Virus record (IMG/VR): IMGVR_UViG_3300045988_036631 | Span: 1-44,213 of that record | Length of the DNA stretch: 44,213 nt | Direction: 5' to 3' (one strand) | Source: a virus | Part shown: positions 4,050 through 44,213 of the stretch, one piece after another | How the letters are laid out: each line of letters opens with the position of its first letter | Numbering within the stretch: position 1 is the stretch's first letter | Program-made: the position numbers and the translations under genes | Notes under the pieces: generated by a model | Told to the model about the DNA's origin: nothing | Databases searched by the model: none | Seen by the model: only the letters and a program-made list of their open reading frames with translations

Positions 4050-5159
4050 ATGGCAAAAGCAAAAAAGCTACCGTCCGGGAACTGGCGAACACAGGTTTAC
4101 CTCGGCAAGGATGCCGCCGGAAAGCCAATCGTTGAATCCTTCACCGCCTCGACCGCCCGCGAATCTGAGCGTCTCGCCGCCGTCGCTGCTGCCGATCACA
4201 AACGGAAGAAGAAGCAAACGCTGACGCTTGGTCAGGCAATGGACGAGTTTATAGACACGTGCAGGGTACAAGGCTATTCGCCGTCCACGCTGAGGGGATA
4301 TGTCACCATCCGCAAAAACAGCTTCCTGTCGCTGGTCAATGTGAAGCTCGATCAAATCACGCCCCGCGATGTGCAAAAGGCACTTGACGACCGAGCGCGG
4401 GCGCACACGCCGAAGACGGTCAGAAATGACTATTTCTTACTCAAAACGATTTTGGAAAAAAACGTTCCCGATCTACAGCTTAATGGAATCGTCCTCGCAA
4501 AGCTCAAGCGGAAAAAGAAGCAGCTCTTTTCCGAAAAGTGGGCGGGCGACGTTCTCCGCTACGTCGCGGAACGCTGGGAGACGGATTTTTACCTCTACTG
4601 CTGCTTCATCATCAGCGCGGGCTTGCGCCCCTCTGAGGCGTATGCTCTGACGTGGGGGGATTTGTCCGCGTCTCCCATTGACGCGCTGGATTCGAGCGGC
4701 AGGACGTACAGGATCGGCACAATCAACATTGACAAGGCGATCGTTCGCGGCGAAAAGGGGTTCCAGCCCAAAGGGACGAAAAGCGACGCGGGAGAGCGCG
4801 TCCTGCGCGTTGACTGGTCTTTCTTTGAAAACCTTTACGACGCAAAGCCACGAGGAAAAGACGACGAACAGGTTTTCCAGATGAAGCCCAGCCGCGTTAT
4901 TTACAGATGGGATATCACGCGCAAAGACCTAGGACTGCCGGAAACCATGCGCTTTTACGACCTGCGCCACTTCTTCGCAACGTCCGTCGCATACTCCGGC
5001 GCATCCGAGGAAGAACTTGCCCGCGTCATGGGTCATTCCACATCCGCTTTCTCCCATCAGGTGTACGTCGAGCTTTTCCGTGAACGGCAGGATGAAATCA
5101 ACGCCAAAATGGCGGCGGGAACAGCCGCCTTGTACGGGTCTGTTTCGGCTAAAAAATAG
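4050..5159 (+). CDS. int: Tyrosine recombinase / phage integrase
   Basis: C-terminal catalytic pattern RFYDLRHFFATSVAYSG...LARVMGHSTSAFSHQVYVE (R..HxxR..H..Y). N-terminal SAM-like arm. Adjacent to attP. Confidence 0.95.
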   Translation: MAKAKKLPSGNWRTQVYLGKDAAGKPIVESFTASTARESERLAAVAAADHKRKKKQTLTLGQAMDEFIDTCRVQGYSPSTLRGYVTIRKNSFLSLVNVKLDQITPRDVQKALDDRARAHTPKTVRNDYFLLKTILEKNVPDLQLNGIVLAKLKRKKKQLFSEKWAGDVLRYVAERWETDFYLYCCFIISAGLRPSEAYALTWGDLSASPIDALDSSGRTYRIGTINIDKAIVRGEKGFQPKGTKSDAGERVLRVDWSFFENLYDAKPRGKDDEQVFQMKPSRVIYRWDITRKDLGLPETMRFYDLRHFFATSVAYSGASEEELARVMGHSTSAFSHQVYVELFRERQDEINAKMAAGTAALYGSVSAKK

Positions 5160-6169: not shown

Positions 6170-6592
6170 TCACGCCTGCCGCGTGACGATCAGGTTTGCG
6201 TTGGCAACGTCAATCGCTTGCGCACTGGTGTTTTTCAGCGCGACGGTTACGCAGCATCCGCGCGGCACATCGACAAATGCGGAGACGGAGACGTTGAAAT
6301 AGTTTTCGACCGCCGCAGGGGTGACGATAGCGACGGCACTATTCAGCGGCTCGCCGTTTATGGTCAGCGCAACGGAGATCGCTCCAACCGTTCCACCGGT
6401 CGGAATGGCAATGTTCCCGGTGAAGTCCACAAAGTACCGTGCTCGGCACTGGTTTGTCAGGCCGCGAAGTGTTACGATTCCCGCGCCCTCTCGATGGACG
6501 ATGCACGGAGAGCCGCAAATCGGCGTTTCGGTCAGCGGTAGATTCTGGCCAGCCGCGACAAGTGCCGTGCTGGCGTTGGTATACTCAGCCAT
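6170..6592 (-). CDS. BclA-C-terminal / C1q-TNF-like jelly-roll domain protein, 140 aa
   Basis: Pattern QNLPL...G..IVH..GAGIVTL...RYFVDFTGNIAIPTGGTVGAISVALTINGEPL......VALKNTSAQAIDVANANLIVTRQA resembles the BclA C-terminal domain. GAAAGGAG RBS. Confidence 0.5.
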   Translation of the reverse strand: MAEYTNASTALVAAGQNLPLTETPICGSPCIVHREGAGIVTLRGLTNQCRARYFVDFTGNIAIPTGGTVGAISVALTINGEPLNSAVAIVTPAAVENYFNVSVSAFVDVPRGCCVTVALKNTSAQAIDVANANLIVTRQA

Positions 6593-13563: not shown

Positions 13564-15270
13564 TTAGGTTGTAGTCATAGACGCAATCGCGTCTTCAAGA
13601 TTTTTGATCACGATGTTTACGTCTCTTTGATAGTCCAGTTTCAACCCTGCGCCATCCGTGGCTTGCACCACGGTGTTGGGCGCGTAGGTAGTCAGCGCTT
13701 TGTAGGCGGTAAGTTCGGCAGGGGTGAGCGGGGTTTCAACGGGGGCGGCAAGGATTGCGTTTTGTTCGGCAAGCGTTTTTGTGTTGTCAAAAGAGGTTTT
13801 ATCAACCCTCTGCACCTTCACCCCCCTTTCCAAGTCCACCTCGTCGCACACCCATTGCTGCCCATTTTCATCCGTGTAATTGCCGCCGGAAGTGACAGGG
13901 ATGCCGGGCAAGCCGTTTGGGGTGGGAAGGGTGAGAAGTTGTTCGTGGTAGGGTTCGTAGGTGGTTGCGGTTGTGCCGAGTTCAAGCTGCACTTTTACGC
14001 CAGTGAGATTGTATGTTTGTCCTTCAGTTACAATAAAAACTATTCTGGTTGCCATATCAGACATTTTATCGGCAGCACCTAAAGAAAGAATAGCTCCCCA
14101 TGTTTCTGATACAATTTTCACTTTTGGAGATGTGATGCTAGATGATAAAATCACCACACCGGATGCAATAAATGGTGGGATGTCTAACTTGGCATAGCCA
14201 GAACTAGTTGCCGTCCCTGAAATTGATATTAACCCATCTTTTGCAGTAACCGTTACACCTCTAGCGGTCGCTGACCCGTCGGGAATATTCAGCAGATTCC
14301 TCCCCGTCACCTTCACCGCCACGCTTCCGCCATCTCCCGCACTCACAATCGGAACAGGCGCATCGGGAGTCGGCGTGCCGTCCTGCGTACTCTTGCCGTA
14401 GACAGTCAGCCCGCACAGCGGCGCGGAAAAAGCGTCAGAGACAGATACAGGATTGCCCGTTTCGGTGCCGATCAGGATATTCTGGCGCGCTTTGTCGGCC
14501 TTCTCAGCAACAGCCTTCTCAATTTCCGCCAGCCGCTTTCCCGTTGCGGCTGCGTCCGCCGCCTCGCCCTCCTGGGTCAGCGTCGCGTCGATGACGGCAT
14601 CCTTGCCCGGTTCGCCTTTTGCGCCCGTGTCGCCCTTGTCTCCTTTATCTCCCTTTGCGCCCGTTTCGCCCTGCGGGCCGGTGTCTCCCTTCTCGCCCCT
14701 GTCGCCCTTGTCCCCTTTTTCGCCCTTGGGTCCTTGCGGGCCAATCGGGCCTGTTTCGCCCCTGTCTCCCTGCGGACCTTGCGGCCCTACAAAGTCGCCA
14801 TTATCCAACCGCCGCTGTACTTCGTCTGCGACTTCCTGCGCAGCGTTTCCCGCTCGTTCAACGTCGGCCAGCATGCCAGTCGCTTTGTCAATCCATGTTG
14901 TAACCGGATCAGGTGCCGGGGCAGTTGCGTCGCCAAGAGACTCGCTGATGCGCGTACAGGCAATCGCAGTCTTGATGACTGCGCCATCCGCATCTTGGAT
15001 TGTGATTTGGGCTTGCCCGCTTCCGGCTTTATCGCCGATGTCCGCGCGCGTGATCTCCCACGTCAGGATACTGCCCTCTTGTTTCACCGTCGCCGGATAC
15101 TCCACCCGGCCAGGCGGCTTGACCGTGATCGACGCGATAGCATCCGGATACTGGCTCAATATGCTTTTCAGGTCGAGCTGTACCCGCGTCGCGCGATTTT
15201 CGCCGACACGCCCAAGCAGCAGCGCTTGATCGCCAAAACGATCAAGCGTCAGAATGATATCACGCATCAC
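13564..15270 (-). CDS. Tail fibre / receptor-binding protein: BppU_N-like N-terminus plus collagen-like G-X-Y region
   Basis: N-terminus [25 protein letters not shown]...[22 protein letters not shown]. About 20 G-X-Y triplets ([29 protein letters not shown]...), roughly 14605-14787. Confidence 0.85.
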
Positions 15271-27470: not shown

Positions 27471-27893
27471 TTAACCTCCTGACAGCTCGTCTCGCATGAT
27501 TTCCTTGTACTCTTCGCGGTGATCTTCAATCGCGGGTCTTAGGTATCGGTGAGGCCGCATAAACGATTTACCGATTCCGCTTCCTCGCGTCGTCGTGAAC
27601 TGTTCCCATTCAGGCGGTGCTTCAAAATACGGTCCAGTGCCCAGTTCAGGATACGGCGCATATTCGACGTTGCTGCCCACGCTCACCACGTCGTCGTCAA
27701 CCCTGTGCGTGATGCTGTTTCTCAATGTTCCGCCGATATATCCTCTCTTTCCCGTGCTTTCAACCGTTCCGACGGGGCACTTGTCCTTTGCGTATGTTTC
27801 AGCTTTCTGACCGATGGTTTCAAGCGCCCACGCCTTTGCGCGTTCCAGTTCTGCCAGAAACGCCGCGCTGTTGTCGATCAGGTTTCCCGCCAT
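27471..27893 (-). CDS. HK97 gp10-like head/neck protein, 140 aa
   Basis: GGAAGGAGG RBS before ATG 27893. ...GTLRNSITHRVDDDVVSVGSNVEYAPYPELGTG. Confidence 0.65.
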   Translation of the reverse strand: MAGNLIDNSAAFLAELERAKAWALETIGQKAETYAKDKCPVGTVESTGKRGYIGGTLRNSITHRVDDDVVSVGSNVEYAPYPELGTGPYFEAPPEWEQFTTTRGSGIGKSFMRPHRYLRPAIEDHREEYKEIMRDELSGG

Positions 27894-28860
27894 TGTGCGC
27901 CTCCTTCCATCCCGCCCACTCCGCATAAGTCTTAAACGGTATTGTGTCGCGGGTGATGTTGTCGAGCCGCGTCTCATTTCGCGGCGGATATTTTGGATTG
28001 TACGACACGAGCGTACAGCGGCAGTTGTACACATTCGCGGGTCTTGCGTTCGGGTCGCCCGGACACATGATCTCGCCCAGCTCGCTCTGAAACGGCTTGT
28101 CTACGTCCACCCGCTGCCCGTCAAGCATAGCGTGGGAATGGCGCGTGTGGTTGTCCAGCGTCGCCCGCCACTCCTTTTGCAGCTTGATACCCAGCTTTGC
28201 CGCCTGATGATAGCTTTCAATGCGCCCTGCGTTCTGCGCGTAGGTCATCGCGGTTCTCGCGTGTCGCCTTGCGCTGGCCTCATTCGCCGTCGTCACACGC
28301 TGCAATCGCTTCACGACCGTCTCAAGCGGTTCGCCCTGAATGATGCCCTGCGTGATCTGCTGCGTGATCTGCATATGATTCCAGCGCTTGTCTGCTGGTA
28401 TATCCACCTTTGACGGCGGCAGAAGGTCTGGCTGGTCGCGGATAAGCTGCTTGACGGTTGATGCGTCGTATAGCTCAAAGCCCATGTTTATCCGTGCGCC
28501 CTTTTCAAGCATATAGCTCGACCAGTTGGCATTATAGGCAAACGCTTCCGGGGTCGTGTCGTTGATGATCTGCATAGCAAGCTCGTTGCTGTGCGTCAGC
28601 GTCTCCGTCAGGTTGGCAAGCATCTGTCGCCAGCGTTTCCCCTGAAACACTTGCCCTGCCAGCCAATCGCGATACGTCTCTTGCGTGATCTCTCCCGCTT
28701 CGAGCTGCGCATGATATTTTTTATCATCCCTGCGGAATTTCGCGATGAACTTACCCAGCTTGCGCTGGATATCAGCCGCCGCGTCGGTGTATACGTCGCG
28801 GATGCGCCGCTCTAGTTCTTCAATCTGCTTGTCAGTCCATTGAACCGCCTGATCTGTCAA
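27820..28860 (-). CDS. Head morphogenesis protein (SPP1 gp7 / Mu F family)
   Basis: RHARTAMTYAQNAGRIESY...WRATLDNHTRHSHAMLDGQRV...PGDPNARPANVYNCRCTL. Confidence 0.9.
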   Translation of the reverse strand: MTDQAVQWTDKQIEELERRIRDVYTDAAADIQRKLGKFIAKFRRDDKKYHAQLEAGEITQETYRDWLAGQVFQGKRWRQMLANLTETLTHSNELAMQIINDTTPEAFAYNANWSSYMLEKGARINMGFELYDASTVKQLIRDQPDLLPPSKVDIPADKRWNHMQITQQITQGIIQGEPLETVVKRLQRVTTANEASARRHARTAMTYAQNAGRIESYHQAAKLGIKLQKEWRATLDNHTRHSHAMLDGQRVDVDKPFQSELGEIMCPGDPNARPANVYNCRCTLVSYNPKYPPRNETRLDNITRDTIPFKTYAEWAGWKEAHNGGKPDRQQRGVSGRTGTRKGVGA

Positions 28861-30058
28861 GCGCCGTCACCCCCGCCGCGTTCGCATAAACCCGTTCTCT
28901 CATCAGTTTCCCGGAACCTTTCCCGCTGCTAAGTGATCGCTTGTCGCACTCAAAAACGCGTGTGAAGCGCTTGTCCTCCACCTTGTAACTGCTGATAAAT
29001 ACGGGAGTTTTCTGTTTCGCTGCCCAATTAAAAAAGGATTCGTGGTCGAATCCTTCATAAATTCCGCAATCTGTATCTTGATACGGAATATCTGCGTAAA
29101 TCACGCTATTTGGTGGAATTTTTACGTTTTCATAGCTTTCAAACGAGATTTCCAGCCTTTCCAGCCTTTGCAGCCTTTCCAGCCTTTCCAGCCTTTGCAG
29201 CCTTTCCAGCCTTTCCAGACTTTGCAGACTTTGCAGACTTTGCAGACTTTGCAGACTTTGCAGCCTTTGCCTGAGCCTGTACAATCCGACAAGCTCATTG
29301 TAATCGTCAGGAAGCGGCATAAATTCCTGCATACGTTGGTACATTTCCCGCGTCGGGAACTCCCATTGTGAGCGCCCGAAGTAATGCCCGGCCATCTGCG
29401 TTCCGAGACGACGCTGAACCTCGGCCTGCGTCAAGCCTGACGTTTTCAAGGCTTTCAGTAGATACGCCCTCAGCTCTTCCTCGTCTCTCTCGATATCTGC
29501 TTTCGCGTTTTTAATCAGTTCGTCAAGCTCTGCTGGGGAATATTTCTGATGTGAAAGCCACCACCGAATATATTTCTCCTTGTACTCGGCTTCATGCGCC
29601 AGAACGTCCGCGCGGCTTCCGTCTCCTTCGATTCCCATATTTTGCAGGAGGAATGTGTCACCAAAAACCCGCGCATAGTGCAGCGCTTTTTTCCATGGTT
29701 CTATTTCCTGCGCATATAGATAGTCGATCCCGTTATTCCCGAAGCTCCAACAGTATCTAACATACGGGTCAACATCTTTCAGCTTTTGAAACGTTTCTCG
29801 ATCAATCCAGCGCTTTTCATCCGCATACTCTCCGCATATTGCGCCCTTGAACAGTTTCAACGGCATTTCGCAAATGTCGTTCGCTATAATCCGCTCCCAC
29901 TTCGGGGCAAGGCCTTCACAGCTTTCGAGTGCCGCATGTGTTATGGCGCAACCGCCAGCGCAGATATCAATCAAAACATCAGCAGGCGGAAGAAAACTGA
30001 CTATTTTTCGCGCTATGCTGTTTTTGCTCCCTTTGTACGGTATGCCATAGCGCTTCAC
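28832..30058 (-). CDS. D12-class (Dam-like) N6-adenine DNA methyltransferase with internal tripeptide repeat
   Basis: N-terminus YKGSKNSIARKIVSFLPPADVLIDICAGGCAIT (AdoMet motif). C-terminus VIYADIPYQDT (DPPY-type motif). GTGA start overlaps the portal stop. Confidence 0.85.
   Translation of the reverse strand: MKRYGIPYKGSKNSIARKIVSFLPPADVLIDICAGGCAITHAALESCEGLAPKWERIIANDICEMPLKLFKGAICGEYADEKRWIDRETFQKLKDVDPYVRYCWSFGNNGIDYLYAQEIEPWKKALHYARVFGDTFLLQNMGIEGDGSRADVLAHEAEYKEKYIRWWLSHQKYSPAELDELIKNAKADIERDEEELRAYLLKALKTSGLTQAEVQRRLGTQMAGHYFGRSQWEFPTREMYQRMQEFMPLPDDYNELVGLYRLRQRLQSLQSLQSLQSLQSLERLERLQRLERLERLQRLERLEISFESYENVKIPPNSVIYADIPYQDTDCGIYEGFDHESFFNWAAKQKTPVFISSYKVEDKRFTRVFECDKRSLSSGKGSGKLMRERVYANAAGVTALDRSGGSMD
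29151..29267. repeat. 13 tandem 9-bp units (t[c/g]cag[c/a]ctt), in frame within the methylase gene
   Basis: Units counted from 29151. They encode (S/R)L(Q/E) x13: RLQSLQSLQSLQSLQSLERLERLQRLERLERLQRLERLE. Confidence 0.95.
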
Positions 30059-31413
30059 GTCGTTTTCTCCTCCGATTCCTCGCGCACGAACCGTCCTTCC
30101 GTTTCCTCGTCCAGCCGCGCCATGATCTCCGGCACTTTGTCGATGTAGATGTTCGGCAGATTCTCGAGGATCGTCTGTCTGTCAAGATACGTTGCTTCCA
30201 GCATCAGCATTTGAACCTGTTCAAGCTGGTTACTGATGCGGTTGCGCTTGAAAACGGGGACATCATCAATGCCGATCAGTCCCAGAATCGACCTGATGCA
30301 CGTTTCAATCTGGTTTTCAAAGTCGTCGGCGTTCTCATCCAGCGGTTGAAACGCAGAATTGATTGCCGTCGCGGTCTGATTTGATGCGGAAATCGCCTTC
30401 GTGTCGAACCCGCCGAAATCTTCATAGATATCCTGACGGATAGTCTGCAAGTACGCCGTTCGCGCCGCATACGGTACATCTTGCGTGTACGGCTTGATTG
30501 CGCCGCCGTCCGTTGTGTCCGCTACTGCGATGTGCTGCAATAGTATCTGGTCGCGGAAACGTTGGAGTTCTTCCTCTTTCATGCCGCCGTAGTTTTCAAG
30601 TATCCAGTAGATTTGCGCGCAGTCCTGCAAGTCGTTTGCAAAGCCAGACCGGATTAGATCATAGCTGTCAATGCTTTGCTGCAACCCGATAAGCGTTGAC
30701 TGATGCAAGCGGCTGCCCCAAAGCGGGACAATCGGCAGACGGCTATAATTTTCTTCTGCGACGACTTCCGGCTCAGCGTCGGCAGGCGCTTTTGAAATCG
30801 TCTGCTTGTAGCTGCGCTTTTCGCCGTCCTTCTCAAATTTTGCATACCCGCCTTTAGACTTGTATCTCCTGTATCCGTCCTCGGTATACAAAATCGCAAT
30901 CGTGGGCTTTGTGCTGTCGATGCGCCAATAGCGCAGACCCGCCCGCAAAGTGCCGTCGTTCTCGTCCCACAGCGGCACGAACTCCGTCAGCGGAAAGACG
31001 TGAATATGGTCAAAATTGAAGAAAACAAAGCTGACACCGTGAATCAGTGCCAGATATCCAGCACGATAAATCTCCGTGTCGAACGTGTCGCCCAGCTTTG
31101 CTTTGGCTGCATCCGTATTCTTTGCAAACGTCACGCCATTGCCGAGCGAATAGGTGCAACGCTGCGTGTTCAGCCGTCTAAAAAAATTCGATGCGATTTT
31201 GTTGTTTGAAGCAACATAATTTTGAACCGCCACGCCCGCAGACGAATAGATTTTCTTCACATATTCGTTGATGGTCTTGTTTCGCTGATGGTCGTACAGG
31301 TCAGCAGTTCGCGCCGTCTCAACCGCTTCATTGAGGTCGTGTTCAGAAATCATCTGAGCGATGAACTCCGGAATTTCGTTCTCGTCCGTTGGAAAATCCT
31401 GCCACGTCAGCAA
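30055..31413 (-). CDS. Portal protein (SPP1 gp6-like)
   Basis: 452 aa, directly after TerL. N-terminus ...ADLYDHQRNKTINEYVKKIY...NKIASNFFRRLNTQR. Confidence 0.9.
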   Translation of the reverse strand: MLTWQDFPTDENEIPEFIAQMISEHDLNEAVETARTADLYDHQRNKTINEYVKKIYSSAGVAVQNYVASNNKIASNFFRRLNTQRCTYSLGNGVTFAKNTDAAKAKLGDTFDTEIYRAGYLALIHGVSFVFFNFDHIHVFPLTEFVPLWDENDGTLRAGLRYWRIDSTKPTIAILYTEDGYRRYKSKGGYAKFEKDGEKRSYKQTISKAPADAEPEVVAEENYSRLPIVPLWGSRLHQSTLIGLQQSIDSYDLIRSGFANDLQDCAQIYWILENYGGMKEEELQRFRDQILLQHIAVADTTDGGAIKPYTQDVPYAARTAYLQTIRQDIYEDFGGFDTKAISASNQTATAINSAFQPLDENADDFENQIETCIRSILGLIGIDDVPVFKRNRISNQLEQVQMLMLEATYLDRQTILENLPNIYIDKVPEIMARLDEETEGRFVREESEEKTT

Positions 31414-31415
31414 CT

Positions 31416-32645
31416 TTAATCACCTCCTCGCCCAAAGAATGGGCTTTTATACTCTTCTTTCGGCTTGACAAGCCGCATGGTGCGCACGCCGTAGCGCAGC
31501 GCGTCCATCAGGTGGTCATTTACCTTTATCGGCTTGTCGTCCGCTTTGTCGTCCCAAACATAGCCGTCAAACTCCTTGCGCAGCTCCGGCAGATTGTCAA
31601 AAATCCGCACGTCGCCGCGCTGCATGCAAACCGCAACGTCGCGGATGCCGTCCAGCACGTCGTTATCTGCCTTCCTAACACGGAAGGCAAACCGTGAACG
31701 CCTGAGCGCCGCGATGAACGACGCGGCAGAAGGGTCGATGATTGTCATCACGCCGCGCTGCTGGTCTTCCGGCAAACTCTCGCAGACGAACCGCTCCATG
31801 TCGCGCACATAATCCTCATCGGTTTTTTGCACTTGTGTGTCGCGTCCGGAGTAGCGATATTCCCGGAAAATATGCCAAACGCCCTCGCTTTTTCCCCATA
31901 GCAGGGCGGCGAAGGCGTTTTGTGTGCCGTAGTCGATGGAAATAAAAACGTCACGCCAGCGCGGCGGCGTGAACGGCGTTTCAAGCGCTAAGGAATAGCC
32001 GGGGTAGATCATGCCCTCGGCAAGCGACCACTCGCCCAGAATATAGCGCTTATAGTACACCGACCCGGCGTATTCTCGTTTCAGGTTTTCGATAAACTCC
32101 GGCGGTAAGAACGGATTATCGTCTATCGTGTAGGTTTGGCTGAATATGTCCGCGTCGCTGTCCAAAAACGCCTTTAACCAATGACTGGGATATTGTGGGT
32201 TGAACGTGCCGTCAAAGCAGGAATACGCCTTGTCCAGACGGCTTTTCAGCAACTCAAAAACTTCGATGCTCCAATCCGCGACCTCGTCTCCGTAACAATA
32301 CTTGATTGATGCGCCACGGATTTTTGAAACTTGCGTGATTTTCTCCGCGCCGAGTGCGTAACAACGTTCGCCAAAAAGCCAGATGCGATTATCACTAGAT
32401 ATTGTGCCGACAAGCTCATCGCCATAGATATTCCGCATAGGTTCAAGCACGTTTCTTTCAATCGTGCTTTTTGTAACGCCGAGAATGACCGTCAAGCCTT
32501 CTTTGCCTATGCGCTCCCTTATCCGTATCGGAATGACCCATCTGAAATCCAGATATGTCTTTCCGCTTCGCGTTGCTCCGCCCTTAAAGTTCCATCTATG
32601 ATGCGCCTCGCGTACAAACTCCGTCTGTTTATCGCTTAACAGCAT
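31416..32645 (-). CDS. terL: Terminase large subunit
   Basis: Walker A GGATRSGKT. 409 aa. Precedes the portal gene. Confidence 0.9.
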   Translation of the reverse strand: MLLSDKQTEFVREAHHRWNFKGGATRSGKTYLDFRWVIPIRIRERIGKEGLTVILGVTKSTIERNVLEPMRNIYGDELVGTISSDNRIWLFGERCYALGAEKITQVSKIRGASIKYCYGDEVADWSIEVFELLKSRLDKAYSCFDGTFNPQYPSHWLKAFLDSDADIFSQTYTIDDNPFLPPEFIENLKREYAGSVYYKRYILGEWSLAEGMIYPGYSLALETPFTPPRWRDVFISIDYGTQNAFAALLWGKSEGVWHIFREYRYSGRDTQVQKTDEDYVRDMERFVCESLPEDQQRGVMTIIDPSAASFIAALRRSRFAFRVRKADNDVLDGIRDVAVCMQRGDVRIFDNLPELRKEFDGYVWDDKADDKPIKVNDHLMDALRYGVRTMRLVKPKEEYKSPFFGRGGD

Positions 32646-39246: not shown

Positions 39247-39449
39247 TTTTTTCCCTCCCCTTGCCGTCTTTGAAACGTCCTCATGCAGGTGTACCGACAA
39301 AAATACTTACATTTTCCTTTTTTGTCAGTAATCTTATAGACATAGATCATCGGGTATGCCGTCACAAACTTAGTACCGCACACGGGGCAAGTTCTGGAGG
39401 TTAATACTTGGTCAAGCGCCCCGCGAGGCATTTTGCTTTTCCCGCTCAT
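39243..39449 (-). CDS. Small zinc-finger protein, 68 aa
   Basis: CPVCGTKF...CKYFCRYTC. Confidence 0.5.
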   Translation of the reverse strand: MSGKSKMPRGALDQVLTSRTCPVCGTKFVTAYPMIYVYKITDKKGKCKYFCRYTCMRTFQRRQGEGKK

Positions 39450-40228
39450 ATCGGCAGTCTCTCCTGTGTCGCTTTTGGCGCATACAAGTCGTGGAAAAAC
39501 CGCTGGCCTTTCCCGGTGATTAGCGGTGTTTTGTTGATCTGAATACCGCTGCTTCGGGAAACCGTACTCTCATGCACCCGCATCAGCCCCATATCCATGC
39601 TTTTCTGTGACGGAACGTTCCAGTTTCGGCCTTTTGAGTTCAGCCATTTGTCATTTCGCAGCCTTTCAAACAGCCGTCTTTCTCCGATATCTAGCCCCGC
39701 CTGATTCAGAATTTTGGCCAGCGTTCCGATTGAGATGCAGGTTTCTGCTTTCTCCACGGTTTCGGCAAACAGCACCTTCGGCGCGTCTGCTTTGATCTTT
39801 TCGTTCGCAGCCTCAAGCTGCTTGTTTCGCTCGGCAATCTTCCGCTGTGCAACAATCAGCGCGTTTGCCAGCAACTGGTCGTCGTCCATCGTCTCCTGTC
39901 CGGCGATATATCCGCCCGTCTTGCGGATCTCTGGAATAACCTCGTGAGTAATCCAGCGCTTGAAGGCTTTCGCTTCGGGCTTGCGGCTACCAAGAATCAA
40001 AGCGTAAAGCCCCGGTTCGTTGACGGCATTCACGGGAAGCCCGTTGCTCGCACCCTCGATTGAAACTAGGGTGCGTTCATCCTCATCCAAACGCTTAATA
40101 ACATCGCTGCTGTTCCCCAGTCCCAGCGCCCTGCACACATCCGCCGCCACAAACCACGGTTCACCTTCCAGTGTCACAGCGCGCACCGCGCCGAACTCAT
40201 CCTTGCGAAAAATCGTTACATCGTTCAT
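39446..40228 (-). CDS. Antirepressor: Bro-N domain plus KilAC/ANT C-terminal domain
   Basis: FGAVRAVTLEGEPWFVAADVCRALGL...EPGLYALILGSRKPEAKAFKRWITHEVIPEIRKTG. Confidence 0.85.
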   Translation of the reverse strand: MNDVTIFRKDEFGAVRAVTLEGEPWFVAADVCRALGLGNSSDVIKRLDEDERTLVSIEGASNGLPVNAVNEPGLYALILGSRKPEAKAFKRWITHEVIPEIRKTGGYIAGQETMDDDQLLANALIVAQRKIAERNKQLEAANEKIKADAPKVLFAETVEKAETCISIGTLAKILNQAGLDIGERRLFERLRNDKWLNSKGRNWNVPSQKSMDMGLMRVHESTVSRSSGIQINKTPLITGKGQRFFHDLYAPKATQERLPI

Positions 40229-40230
40229 GC

Positions 40231-41484
40231 TTAACCCCCTTGCATTTCCGTGAATCGCATCGTCGCGCCGTCAAAATACAGCGTAATCCTTCCACATCGA
40301 CCTCCCCGATTTTTGTCCAGAAACAGCTTCCTTTCCGGGTCATCCTTGTCGTTCGGCGCATGTAGCAGGAGTACCGCGTCCGCGTCCTGCTCAATCGAGC
40401 CGGATTCGCGCAGGTCTGACAGTTTCGGCTCGTCGTTCCGCTCGCTCGCGCGGTTGAGCTGTGATGCGGTCAAAACCGGGATTTTTAGCTCCATCGCAAG
40501 CGCCTTTAGCCCTCTTGTGACAACTCCGACTGCTTCCGCGCGGTTGTTTGTCTTTTGTCCTGCATCAAGCAGCTGCAAGTAATCAGCCACGATCAAATCA
40601 AGCCCGCCATGTGCTCGCGTCCTCAGTGCCATTCGGCGGATATCCTGCACGGTTCGCGCCCGTTCGCTGATGCAGAACCTCTCTGACGGGATTTCTGCAA
40701 AGCTGTCAGCGACTTTGATGATCTCATCTTCCGTCAGGTCGTGGCGTTCGATTTTGTCCACCGAGACGCCGCTTTTCTGTGCCACAACACGCCCGACGAC
40801 CTCGTCCGCGCCCATCTCGCAAGATACCAACAGGATTCTTCTGCCTGCGTCCAGCGCTCGAACGGCCATATGCAGCAGGAGCGCAGACTTGCCGACGGAA
40901 GGCCGTGCGCCGACAACGATCAACTTGCCGCCCGCAATCAGCAAGGATTGATCGAGCTTCGGAAACCCTGTCTTTGCGATGGGTTCAACCGCTCCACTCG
41001 TGAGCCGTGTATAAAAGCCGCAAAGCGCGCCTGTGCCGCTGATAATGTCTCCGTCGTCTGTTTGTCCGCCAAGTTCGTTCAAGCGCACCACGGCGCCGTT
41101 AAGCAGTTCTGACGTGGATATCTCGCCATCGTTCGCGCTCTTGACTGTATCCAGACACGTCTTGATAAGCGCTTTCCGCATTGCCGCTTCCCGGATGTTC
41201 CGTGCCTGCTGTTCGGCAAGCGCCGTTGTGACGGTTTCCGTGGCGACGACGATAGCCTGTTCAAGGTCGTCGTCAGAAATCACGCCTTCAAGCGTCGGGA
41301 TATCGCATGGACGGCCTTGCCTCTCAAGCGCAAGCGCGGCCTCAAAAATTCGGCGGCAGAACGGGATTGTGAACCATTCGGCTTTAAGCCCGGAATCGCT
41401 TGCCTTTGCGTCGCCCTTGATGATTGCGCCGCAGAATTCGCGCTCAGAGATCTCTTTCGTGAGACTTTGGTACGGATCGTCCAT
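40231..41484 (-). CDS. Replicative DNA helicase (DnaB family)
   Basis: Walker A GARPSVGKSALLL. DYLQLL, SQLNRASE and RESGSIEQDADAV motifs. Confidence 0.95.
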   Translation of the reverse strand: MDDPYQSLTKEISEREFCGAIIKGDAKASDSGLKAEWFTIPFCRRIFEAALALERQGRPCDIPTLEGVISDDDLEQAIVVATETVTTALAEQQARNIREAAMRKALIKTCLDTVKSANDGEISTSELLNGAVVRLNELGGQTDDGDIISGTGALCGFYTRLTSGAVEPIAKTGFPKLDQSLLIAGGKLIVVGARPSVGKSALLLHMAVRALDAGRRILLVSCEMGADEVVGRVVAQKSGVSVDKIERHDLTEDEIIKVADSFAEIPSERFCISERARTVQDIRRMALRTRAHGGLDLIVADYLQLLDAGQKTNNRAEAVGVVTRGLKALAMELKIPVLTASQLNRASERNDEPKLSDLRESGSIEQDADAVLLLHAPNDKDDPERKLFLDKNRGGRCGRITLYFDGATMRFTEMQGG

Positions 41485-42217
41485 AACTCATCCCTCCCTT
41501 GCTGTCAGGTGGCTTGTCCGTCCATGTGTATCCTCGCTCTTTCTCCTTGCGAAGAATGCCCTCGACATACCGCCAACATCGGCTTTTTTCTGTCGCTCCT
41601 TGAGTTTTGTTTATGGCTTTCAGCAGATTTTTGGCTCCGTATTCAGCCCTGAGTCTGTCCATCGCGTCAAAGTCGCCCGAAGCACTGGCGGGTAAACCCA
41701 TGCGCTTTGCAGCAGCCTCCACGTCTGCCTGTTCTTCCCGCATTCGCCGCAGTTCGTCGTCCGTCACGTCGTCGTAGGGGTTTGGGGTTACGTAACCACC
41801 ACCAATATTCTTTTCTTGTTCTTTTACTTGTTCTTGTTCTTGTATATATGCGTTTTGCTTGACGTTGCTTTCGTCTGCTTCCGGTTGCTTGGCTTTGCTT
41901 GACTTTGCTTGGCTTTGCTTCAATGTGCTTGCGTTTGCTTCCGTCTGCTTGACGTTGCTTTCGTCTGCTTCCGGTTGCTTGGCGCTTCCGCCTTTTTTCC
42001 CGCTTGCTTTCTTTGCTTCCAAGGATTCAGCGCACTGATCGATTTTAAATTGAAGCGTGTCCCAGACATACCATTCCGGCGCGTTCTCGCCAAACGTCGG
42101 CAACTCGCCACGGTAGGCATAGGCCATCATGGCCATAAAAAGCCGTCCGCGCTGTGCGTCATCATATCGTTTGAGAAGGACTTCGATGTCCGGGAAAACC
42201 TTCAGATAATCCAGCAT
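41444..42217 (-). CDS. Replisome organizer / replication initiator (DnaD-like C-terminus) containing the origin repeats
   Basis: N-terminus MLDYLKVFPDIEVLLKRYDDAQRGRLFMAMMAY. Repeated KQPEADESNVKQ. Precedes the DnaB gene. Confidence 0.75.
   Translation of the reverse strand: MLDYLKVFPDIEVLLKRYDDAQRGRLFMAMMAYAYRGELPTFGENAPEWYVWDTLQFKIDQCAESLEAKKASGKKGGSAKQPEADESNVKQTEANASTLKQSQAKSSKAKQPEADESNVKQNAYIQEQEQVKEQEKNIGGGYVTPNPYDDVTDDELRRMREEQADVEAAAKRMGLPASASGDFDAMDRLRAEYGAKNLLKAINKTQGATEKSRCWRYVEGILRKEKERGYTWTDKPPDSKGGMSYGRSVPKSHERDL
41851..41980. repeat. 13 consecutive 10-bp units each ending TGCTT (AAGCA on the coding strand); putative ori iterons
   Basis: cgttttgctt gacgttgctt tcgtctgctt ccggttgctt ggctttgctt ... 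Includes a 33-bp exact direct repeat at 41861-41893 and 41951-41983. Flanked by a T-rich/TATATA stretch at 41806-41850. Confidence 0.85.
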
Positions 42218-42853: not shown

Positions 42854-43780
42854 TTATTGTTCTTTGTCTTCGGGCACGTTCTCCGGCGCGTCATGCGCCG
42901 TTCCAGTGTCTGTCACATCTACGATGCCATCAGGCAGAGGGGATTCATCATCGACCAGGCCTGCGCTTATATCGTGCGCCGCTTTCAGCGCGGCGGGGGA
43001 TGCGCTTTTGTAATCGATGGACATAACGCCCCAGCGTCCGAGCAAGCGGCGCATGACGGTTTTCCGCGCCATAGCGTCCCAGTCGTCGCGCCAGCCTTTG
43101 CCCTGGTTCTTGCCCTTGCGGTTCTTCGCCTCGTGCGCCTCGATCTGCTGGACACTCATGTACACCGTCTTTTCCGTGCCGTTTACAAGGCGATAATAGC
43201 CGACATAGCCGATGATCGGCAGCTTTTCGCGCTCCGTCTCGTCCTGTTCCCAGCGGAACTCAAAGTCTTCGGTCAATCTATCGCAGGAGATCAGCTCCCC
43301 CTCGCGCACGTCCATCACGTTCAGCCGCTTGTATGCCCCGGTTCTGAGCGCGAGCTGAATCATGCCCTTGTAACCGAGGATAAACTGCGCTTCCGGAATT
43401 TTAATCCAGCTTCCGTCATCCGCTTTTTTGCTGTTGTTGAACGGCACGATGTAGGCAAAGCCGAGCGCGTTATCAACCGGAAGGTCGTAACTTGCGGCTT
43501 TGAGCGCCGCCTGAATGACCGTCTGCGGGGCTTGGCGAACCGCCGCCGTCAGATTTGCATCCGCATTGCAAAGCGTGATGACCGCCGAGATAAATTGCGG
43601 CGCTCGATCGCCCAGCAGATCGTTCAGGCGTTTTTTGTAGCCCTCGGAGTCGAACATGCCGTTCAGAATTTGGTTGACGGTTCGCGCTGCAACGGGCGCG
43701 GTCGTGGCCGCCGCGACGGGTGCGCGGCTGGCGGTTGCGTTTGTGATAATTCCCGCCGTGTTTCTTGCCTGTCTTTCCAT
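42854..43780 (-). CDS. recT: RecT-family single-strand annealing recombinase
   Basis: ...FAYIVPFNN...AQFILGYKGMIQLALRTGAYKRLNVMDVREGE...YVGYYRLVNG... AAGGAGG RBS before ATG 43780. Confidence 0.9.
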   Translation of the reverse strand: MERQARNTAGIITNATASRAPVAAATTAPVAARTVNQILNGMFDSEGYKKRLNDLLGDRAPQFISAVITLCNADANLTAAVRQAPQTVIQAALKAASYDLPVDNALGFAYIVPFNNSKKADDGSWIKIPEAQFILGYKGMIQLALRTGAYKRLNVMDVREGELISCDRLTEDFEFRWEQDETEREKLPIIGYVGYYRLVNGTEKTVYMSVQQIEAHEAKNRKGKNQGKGWRDDWDAMARKTVMRRLLGRWGVMSIDYKSASPAALKAAHDISAGLVDDESPLPDGIVDVTDTGTAHDAPENVPEDKEQ

Positions 43781-43784
43781 GCTT

Positions 43785-44213
43785 TTATGCCTCCTTGACC
43801 ATGAATCGGCGCGTAGGTGCGCCAATCTTGATGTATCTGTCAACGATTTCGGGGTGTTCCTCTGTGAGCCGCTTGGTGTCGATGGTCTTTCGCGGACTGC
43901 TGTTTTTCCAGCTCACGATGTAATTCGCGCTTTCTCCGCGCTCAGATTCGCCCATGCACTCCTTGATACGCTGCTCATACAGGGCTTTATCTCCCTCAAG
44001 CTCTTTGATTTTGCTTGTCAGCGTCATGTATTGGCTGATTGCATCGTCGCAGTCAAGCGTGATGGTCGAGCCATCAGATACGGGATAGCGCTTGGTCAGG
44101 ATTTCTTCCGCCGCCTTGCTTCCGTCAACGGGCGGGCATTTGCCTTGCAAAACATATTCGCGCCAAAAGTAGTCCTCGGCGGAGATGAGCGCCTTGATCT
44201 GGTCTTCGTTCTC
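43785..44213 (-). CDS. YqaJ-type exonuclease, C-terminal part (same gene as 1-624; 44115-44213 duplicates 1-99)
   Basis: The frame is continuous with 1..624 through the 99-bp overlap. The joined gene is about 317 aa. Confidence 0.9.
   Translation of the reverse strand, partial: ENEDQIKALISAEDYFWREYVLQGKCPPVDGSKAAEEILTKRYPVSDGSTITLDCDDAISQYMTLTSKIKELEGDKALYEQRIKECMGESERGESANYIVSWKNSSPRKTIDTKRLTEEHPEIVDRYIKIGAPTRRFMVKEA

Follow-up and report, generated by a model that had tools for sequence, protein, structure and literature searches.

A fast-changing, in-frame nine-base-pair repeat inside a predicted Dam-like DNA methylase of human-gut phages

What is the role of a tandem repeat that lies in the middle of a predicted DNA methylase and changes in length without ever shifting the reading frame? 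Here, we address this question for a methylase gene in a 44,213-nucleotide viral sequence (IMG/VR record IMGVR_UViG_3300045988_036631, positions 1 to 44,213; hereafter, the window), which comes from a temperate, SPP1-like siphophage from the human gut. The gene and its repeat are as follows:

28832..30058, minus strand: gene for a predicted Dam-like (D12, alpha-class) orphan N6-adenine DNA methyltransferase of 408 residues with a GTG start (open reading frame [ORF], PF02086, phrog_56, T4 Dam profile match and Foldseek)
29150..29266, minus strand: hypervariable variable number tandem repeat (VNTR) of 13 in-frame 9-bp units AG[T/G]CTG[C/G]AA encoding (S/R)L(Q/E), residues 265-303 (Tandem Repeats Finder and unit parsing)

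We found that the array is a true, fast-changing and always in-frame VNTR. With moderate confidence, we suggest that the gene encodes a Dam-type orphan methylase of the late operon, the two halves of which are joined by an expandable, Leu-periodic linker or arm that arises from a slippage-prone 9-bp minisatellite.

Anatomy and copy number of the array

In the order of translation, the array encodes RLQ, four SLQ, SLE, RLE, RLQ, RLE, RLE, RLQ, RLE and RLE. Tandem Repeats Finder reported it at 29149-29270 with a period of 9, 13.6 copies, 93% matches and a score of 167; the array is far beyond chance, and repeats of this type recur in hundreds of independent assemblies. An earlier note, made from the letters of the window, had described 13 tandem in-frame 9-bp units between the S-adenosylmethionine (AdoMet) motif and the DIPY motif, and both Tandem Repeats Finder and unit parsing agree with this description. 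The note had placed the array at 29151-29267; the array is there, but its codon register is 29150-29266, a shift of 1 nt that has no consequence. The 27-bp higher-order structure that it had proposed is present only in the second half of the array (RLE RLQ RLE RLE RLQ RLE RLE), and a period of 27 (93% matches) fits no better than a period of 9 (93%). The C-terminal end of the array is the exact point at which the chain enters the strand preceding motif IV (DIPY).

Within the clade of the window and its homologues down to ~58% identity, two of the nine positions of the unit vary, i.e., T/G (Ser/Arg) and C/G (Gln/Glu), and the synonymous sites of the unit are nearly fixed. The four resulting unit types (SLQ, 391; RLQ, 306; SLE, 269; RLE, 167) assort almost independently. 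Between the E/R states of neighbouring units, the largest correlation was r = 0.13, at i+4, among sequences that are not independent of each other, and we judged this value too weak to support helical i/i+4 salt bridges. We also rejected a mechanism of the diversity-generating retroelement type, because the variation consists of the gain, loss and reshuffling of units together with T/G and C/G differences and not of adenine-specific mutagenesis.

In all 120 of the best database homologues (56-94% identity), a tract of 3-20 (S/R)L(Q/E) units occupies the position of the array, and protein lengths increase in steps of 3 residues. Similarly, members of single 90%-identity clusters differ in 3-residue steps, as in (SLESLERLQ)-type arrays of 4-16 units. 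We compared 51 related loci at the DNA level using 2.5-kb flanks on each side of the array, and the following pairs with identical or nearly identical flanks differ in their arrays:

L007 and L033: flanks 100% identical, 8 versus 5 units
L028 and L035: flanks 100% identical, 10 versus 12 units
L004 and L006: flanks 100% identical, 9 versus 7 units
L002 and L029: flanks 100% identical, 12 versus 8 units
L018 and L042: flanks 99.9% identical, 9 versus 15 units
L017 and L041: flanks 99.96% identical, 16 versus 7 units

Beyond these six pairs, the arrays also differ between L011 and L030, which have flanks that are 98.2% identical. Because the longest internally repeated substring in the arrays of L007/L033, L018/L042, L028/L035 and L011/L030 is 21-46 nt, which is below the usual k-mer and read lengths, a collapse during assembly is unlikely for these four pairs, and we rejected an assembly artefact as the sole cause of their copy-number differences. 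Thus, the invariance of repeat number across relatives, which the earlier note had named as an outcome that would speak against its proposal, is not observed, and arrays differ even between identical flanks. In L053 (2100-2460) and L054, the array is interrupted by a run of ~100 N that is preceded by at least 16 and followed by at least 11 units; therefore, arrays of at least 27 units exist. In these N-gapped loci, the methylase was called as only a C-terminal fragment of 90 residues (P0285, P0287 and P0289). The array breaks short-read assemblies and so gives rise to N gaps, 90-residue "fragment" proteins and often truncated gene calls in the family. With a unit of 9 bp, a change in copy number never puts the gene out of frame; consistently, the array is in frame across homologues, and the proposal in the earlier note that its length changes without switching off the gene holds.

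The methylase family and the modules around the tract

The features of the protein that bear on its assignment and on the position of the repeat are:

29939..29968, minus strand: AdoMet-binding motif I DICAGGCAIT, residues 31-40 (aligns to T4 Dam 'dlfCGGlsv')
29081..29092, minus strand: catalytic motif IV DIPY, residues 323-326 (read from the sequence; aligns to T4 Dam DPPY)
29279..29464, minus strand: helix-turn-helix (HTH)-like helical insert, residues ~199-260, '...LTQAEVQRRLGTQMAGHYFGRSQWEFPTREMYQRMQEFMPLP...', directly N-terminal of the repeat (phrog_6952, tblastn and short helices in the AlphaFold2 models)

PF02086 (D12) matches residues 8-75 only (31.3 bits versus a cutoff of 22, E = 2e-7), phrog_56 'DNA methyltransferase' matches residues 287-392, and a search against NCBIfam returned no family. 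Among the listed homologues, all except P0079 have a precomputed PF02086 annotation. In motif I, D31, G35 and G36 are invariant in 63 and in 91 homologues; in DIPY, D323 and Y326 are invariant and P325 nearly so across the family. A profile of the 63 homologues matched T4 Dam as the only solved structure, with profile positions 5-108 aligning to T4 Dam 5-114 (the motif I region) and positions 289-328 to T4 Dam 144-182, which comprises the strand 'IIFSSLHF' followed by 'DFVYVDPPY'. Using Foldseek with the AlphaFold2 model, the best matches in the PDB were EcoDam and T4Dam (probability 1.0, target-normalised template modelling score ~0.5). Accordingly, the assignment of the gene in the earlier note to the D12-class adenine methylases stands.

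Compared with T4 Dam and EcoDam (PDB 1yf3, 1q0s, 4rtq and 2ore), which gave the best profile and fold matches, the window protein has in common the N-terminal D12 match, motif I (xAGGx) and a DPPY-type motif IV (DIPY). It also has the Dam fold and the alpha-class order of an AdoMet-binding region, a DNA-recognition insert and a catalytic region. By contrast, it is ~150 residues longer, owing to additional helices, an insert of the HTH-like type and, directly before the pre-DPPY strand, the array of (S/R)L(Q/E) units, and sequence similarity to the solved enzymes is confined to the N-terminal ~105 residues and ~40 residues around DPPY. As known from the structures of T4 Dam and EcoDam, a short site is read by the monomer through the hairpin of the target recognition domain (TRD). 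On each family feature examined, sequence and model support that the protein is a Dam-like, alpha-class N6-adenine methyltransferase with predicted catalytic activity. IMG labels members of the P0078 cluster of this family (P0294 and P0295) as '16S rRNA G966 N2-methylase RsmD'; because of the D12/Dam sequence and fold matches, this label is probably a misannotation.

Between the Dam-type recognition region and the repeat, the protein has ~120 extra residues that include the HTH-like module. phrog_6952 'DNA methyltransferase' matches residues 207-247 of this module, and in a tblastn search with residues 199-260, the module ('LTQAEVQRRLGTQMAGHYFGRSQWEFPTREMY...') was 39% identical to adenine methyltransferases of Aeromonas phages (phiARM81ld and others) that are otherwise unrelated to the window methylase. 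From these sequence matches, the HTH-like module looks like a mobile accessory domain of phage methylases. Family members of ~300 residues lack the HTH-like insert and still have the repeat tract.

How widely is the tract conserved? An exhaustive search of 50%-identity cluster representatives identified 2127 relatives, and we scored the tract in the best 149. Four or more consecutive x-L-x units are present in 114 of these 149 representatives and three units in 17; many of the remaining 18 have a degenerate tract with I, V or M at every third position, e.g., 'SLERIQSLESLERIQSLERIERIQ'. In further lineages, the peptide repeat is unchanged but is specified by different codons (AGCTTGCAG, AGTTTGGAG, TCCCTGCAA and AGTCTCGAA). 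These differences in codons between lineages argue that the homogeneity of the DNA is lineage-specific, as expected for concerted evolution by slippage. Judged from these sequences, the conserved element is the peptide pattern, i.e., a Leu flanked by polar residues.

The tract is also present in several gene contexts. In the window, as in L001-L009, L011 and L023, the methylase gene adjoins and overlaps the gene for the minor head protein MuF. The position between the portal gene and the MuF gene also holds for L010, but there the methylase gene is ~1 kb from the MuF gene (MuF start at 6227 and not at ~5190); an additional gene may be inserted in this extra ~1 kb (L010:5128-6227). In L012-L017, the methylase gene is located ~2 kb upstream of the portal gene. 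In L052, the order is a gene for a DUF1492 regulator, the methylase gene directly upstream of terS, and the genes for TerS and the large terminase TerL, and the tract is still there. On this comparative evidence, the repeat characterises a large clade of phage D12 methylases as a whole, whatever the gene context, and is not peculiar to the insertion between portal and MuF. In the literature searched, which left most subscription journals and REBASE outside, we found no description of this repeat in D12 methylases, and the methylase family with the repeat is apparently undescribed.

The two sides of the tract have different histories of identity. P0078, P0085 and P0088 are 77-80% identical to the window protein N-terminal of the tract and 33-35% identical C-terminal of it (for P0078, 80% and 35%, respectively); the 'rlpalnrl' group has the opposite trend, with ~66-71% N-terminal and ~55% C-terminal identity. 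These discordant identities indicate that phages have swapped N- and C-terminal modules in or close to the repeat.

Explanations for the tract

The structural data bear directly on the function of the tract. In the AlphaFold2 model of the window protein, the Dam core is reasonable, and residues 271-299 have a predicted local distance difference test (pLDDT) score of 28-36. A 91%-identical homologue with three units was modelled with an overall pLDDT of 82; here, residues 245-271, including the tract, are coil, and the pLDDT is 42-50 at residues 251-270. The earlier note had predicted a helical spacer; in neither model is a helix supported for the tract. From these two models, both of low confidence at the tract, the position to which the tract projects is not derivable. 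The Leu periodicity of three residues does not fit a heptad coiled coil. Among 145 distinct homologues, the distance from FMPLP at the end of the HTH-like module to YADIPY ranges from 42 to 100 residues in steps of 3, with a flat distribution between 45 and 75 and no helical-phase preference. The flanks of the tract belong to one Rossmann fold, with strands 1-2 before it and strands 3-7 after it. Because these flanks belong to a single fold and any length is tolerated, the simplest geometry would be that of a tether or looped-out arm, and not of a rigid ruler. Likewise, the occurrence of all lengths from ~3 to at least 20 units, the absence of a phase preference and the absence of a fixed structure in AlphaFold2 make a length-tolerant tether or arm most likely. 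The conservation of Leu at every third residue suggests that such an arm makes hydrophobic contacts with itself or with a partner, which would be invisible to a model of the monomer.

According to this model of an expandable tether or arm, the methylase would be transcribed and translated together with the portal-MuF head genes and would act on progeny or prophage DNA, possibly protecting it against restriction. The tract would link an N-terminal module (the AdoMet strands, the Dam-type recognition region and the HTH-like insert) to a C-terminal catalytic module (from the strand preceding DIPY onwards). As for the origin of the variation, we infer that slipped-strand mispairing or unequal recombination adds, removes and reorders units at a pace far above that of point substitution; the RecT annealing protein of the phage (42854-43843) could contribute to these changes. 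The shared repeat DNA may double as a recombination joint for the exchange of N- and C-terminal modules.

Several points weigh against this model. A Leu that never varies at every third position is more than a flexible tether would normally require, and this invariance argues that the tract probably has a structure or a partner. Methylation activity is predicted from sequence and model. The copy-number evidence comes from comparisons between assemblies and not within populations, and a collapse artefact is possible for some pairs, e.g., L004/L006 and L002/L029, the arrays of which are periodic over 62-80 nt. Finally, the discordance between the N- and C-terminal identities could partly stem from unequal evolutionary rates and not from recombination.

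Of the other explanations, an arm for oligomerisation or partner binding survives best, but we still regard it as unlikely. According to this explanation, the Leu tract forms an intermolecular hydrophobic assembly, and its length sets reach or valency; candidate partners are other copies of the methylase, in a fibre resembling a hexad/nonad alpha/beta coiled coil, or a component of the head, the portal or MuF. It would best explain the strict conservation of Leu between polar positions that vary freely. The pattern of one hydrophobic residue in three, which outlasts the decay of the DNA repeat, and the failure of a monomer AlphaFold2 model to place the tract are also in line with it. In the phage clade of the window, the gene is moreover tightly coupled to the genes for portal and MuF; however, in other lineages it is not next to either of them, and the solved Dam-family enzymes act as monomers. 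A phmmer search of the tract against PDB sequences returned SDS22/PPP1R7 and internalin leucine-rich repeats with E values down to 2e-6, which we judged to reflect compositional periodicity (LxxLxxL) and not homology. Trimeric alpha/beta coiled coils (PMC4786415) are the one kind of regular hexad/nonad fibre that we found, but the tract does not resemble their known beta-layer motif [aliphatic]-A-T-K-[polar]-[D/E], and we consider an alpha/beta coiled coil of nonads or hexads conceivable at best.

A molecular ruler similar to HsdS, the idea raised in the earlier note, is doubtful. Here, a rigid helical spacer would lie between a DNA-reading module (the TRD and/or the HTH-like insert) and the catalytic site, and a different copy number would mean another recognised sequence or another spacing within a bipartite site, so that a phage population would hold methylases of several specificities. 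The location of the tract at the C-terminal boundary of the T4 Dam/EcoDam TRD region, directly after the extra HTH-like module, is compatible with this idea, as is the hypervariability between otherwise identical phages, which fits diversifying selection; the weak E(i)-R(i+4) correlation (r = 0.13) has the sign expected for helical salt bridges. However, a ruler should come in a few discrete lengths, whereas the tract varies continuously from ~3 to at least 20 units (>50 residues, ~75 Å if helical) with no phase preference. Moreover, there is no confident AlphaFold2 helix, the spacing of Leu is not that of a heptad, and, as mentioned, monomers of the solved Dam enzymes recognise a short site by their TRD hairpin. 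Members of ~300 residues have the tract without the HTH-like module and, therefore, no obvious second DNA-reading element. The precedent comes from EcoR124I, which recognises GAAN6RTCG, and EcoR124II, which recognises GAAN7RTCG; one TAEL unit between the two TRDs sets them apart (PMC7383803). HsdS and the window methylase have in common a short in-frame repeat by target-recognition regions, the copy number of which can be altered without inactivation (PMC7383803). In contrast, the HsdS repeat is a heptad-type coiled coil between two TRDs in which one unit corresponds to a 1-bp shift of the spacer, while the window methylase has one Dam-type TRD, a Leu periodicity of three residues, no confident helix and a continuous range from 3 to at least 20 units. 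Thus, together with the short members that lack the HTH-like module, the tract does not show the features of an HsdS-type helical spacer between two DNA-recognition domains.

It is more improbable still that the tract is a neutral, self-perpetuating minisatellite in a permissive surface loop, kept by slippage alone and of a length without functional consequence. The tolerance of any length, the treatment of the tract as unstructured by AlphaFold2 and the homogenisation of units within lineages, synonymous sites included, are as expected from such concerted evolution. Yet, the tract has stayed at one site of the protein, with varying codons, across more than 100 of the 50%-identity clusters, the Leu is conserved, the periodic pattern persists where the DNA is no longer repetitive, and at least three units are present in 120 of the 120 close homologues parsed. 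This deep retention with changed codons and the conserved Leu argue for selection on the protein. Finally, a DNA-level element, i.e., an array of binding sites, for instance for packaging or regulation, that falls within a coding region by chance, would fit the location within the packaging module and the close clade, in which two of nine positions vary and synonymous sites are nearly fixed, but is extremely improbable given that other lineages encode the same peptide repeat with different DNA and that the array travels with the methylase gene in any genomic context, always in frame and at the same site of the protein.

Genomic setting and comparison with known systems

The genes and signals around the methylase gene are as follows:

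30055..31413, minus strand: SPP1-type portal gene, the upstream neighbour of the methylase gene (PF05133, 3e-36; phrog_64)
27820..28860, minus strand: gene for a MuF/SPP1 gp7-like minor head protein, downstream of the methylase gene (PF04233, 5e-21)
31416..32645, minus strand: gene for TerL, upstream in the same operon (PF03237/PF17289)
30067-30073, minus strand: Shine-Dalgarno sequence GGAGGAG, 8 nt upstream of the methylase GTG and within the 3' end of the portal gene (read from the sequence)

The Pfam matches of the neighbours, from a scan that took in a minority of the ORFs of the window, and the ORF coordinates agree with the earlier note that the methylase gene lies between the genes for portal and MuF in the late packaging/head operon, and we infer that it is expressed late. 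The overlap that the note had reported between the methylase start and the portal stop is evident in the sequence, in which plus-strand positions 30055-30058 (TCAC; GTGA in the coding direction) contain both the GTG of the methylase gene and the TGA of the portal gene. The MuF ORF, as listed, has a TTG start that lies 29 nt within the 3' end of the methylase gene (28832-28860). Together, these two overlaps make portal, methylase and MuF a chain of overlapping genes. That portal and MuF genes are normally adjacent, as the note had also stated, is borne out by L012, L013 and L015, in which they are adjacent and the methylase gene is elsewhere. In comparison with the window, the close relatives L002, L004, L005 and L006 have portals (30055-31413 in the window) that are either ~88% or ~60% identical, whereas MuF (~94%) and the methylase outside the array (~95% nucleotide identity) are steady, which argues for a second mosaic boundary at the portal/methylase junction. 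TerL among close relatives falls into identity classes of 75%, 85% and 98%.

The window also contains genes typical of temperate phages, i.e., for an integrase (4050-5159), a Bro/ANT antirepressor (39446-40228), DnaB (40231-41484) and RecT (42854-43843). Related contigs are assemblies of 40-44 kb from human-gut metagenomes, and one relative sits in a metagenome-assembled genome of Clostridia, Candidatus Ventricola. A megablast search of 27800-31500 against 50,697 phage records gave no match, and tblastn with the methylase protein gave only distant partial matches (Lacticaseibacillus and Aeromonas phages); thus, these searches provided no cultured relative for comparison. Another repeat of the window lies at 41849-41981 on the minus strand, in the DUF6291 ORF 41444-42217 directly upstream of the gene for the DnaB-like helicase, and has ~12 copies with a 10-nt period (AAGCAA followed by 4 variable nt), for which Tandem Repeats Finder also gives periods of 20 and 30. 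It could represent replication-origin iterons in an initiator-like gene or a low-complexity linker rich in K/Q/S/A.

Known examples of variation driven by repeats in methyltransferases are ON/OFF phase variation (Type III mod and hsdM) and the switching of specificity in HsdS. The window methylase has in common with these contingency loci (Type III mod, Type I hsdM/hsdS) a slippage-prone repeat in a gene of a methyltransferase system that changes much faster than its flanks. However, the units of the contingency loci are not multiples of 3 and cause ON/OFF switching or truncation, while the unit in the window methylase is 9 bp and always in frame, and the gene is phage-borne. A REBASE survey of repeat-containing Type I genes excluded units divisible by 3 (PMC7383803). 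In-frame VNTR stalks, such as the collagen-like G-X-Y phage tail fibres and the staphylococcal SD repeats, variation of which has been described (PMC3324548), are also length-polymorphic minisatellites that tolerate almost any copy number. In contrast to the tract in the window, which lies mid-fold in a cytoplasmic enzyme between the halves of one Rossmann domain, these stalks are found in extracellular structural proteins. The window itself has a second in-frame array with a 9-bp period, a collagen-like G-X-Y array at 14612-14728 on the minus strand (11.9 copies, 64% matches). It lies in a 568-residue putative tail-fibre protein (ORF 13564-15270; Pfam Collagen, 2.8e-10) and is potentially length-variable.

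Cargo enzymes of phage heads associated with MuF include the MuF polymorphic toxins, polyvalent proteins and P1 DarB. What the window methylase has in common with these systems is that the gene for a DNA-modifying enzyme adjoins and overlaps the MuF gene in the head module; it differs in that it is not fused to MuF and in that the same family is found upstream of terS in related phages. In the literature searched, we found no account of a Dam-type orphan methylase with a repeat within its catalytic fold that varies widely in length and always stays in frame.

A broader proposal, rather unlikely in our estimate, is that selection maintains the array as a hypermutable module in an enzyme of phage counter-defence, with copy number and the S/R and Q/E 'barcode' of each unit tuning the methylase. 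If this is the case, the targets of tuning would be the sequence or spacing that is methylated, processivity, oligomeric state, reach from a site anchored by the HTH or escape from a host factor by which the methylase is sensed or blocked; populations would then hold a standing pool of methylase variants, and N-terminal recognition and C-terminal catalytic modules would be swapped via the repeat.

Altogether, the repeat defines a clade of human-gut phage methylases that takes in no fewer than 114 of the 149 clusters sampled at 50% identity. If its length or unit composition affects activity or specificity, it would represent a new route for phages to diversify anti-restriction methylation, and the enzyme would be a case from nature of a Rossmann fold that is split in two and held together by an expandable linker. 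Should there be no such effect, the enzyme would still be remarkable for a core that tolerates 9 to at least 80 inserted residues, and the array would be a useful strain-level marker for gut phages.

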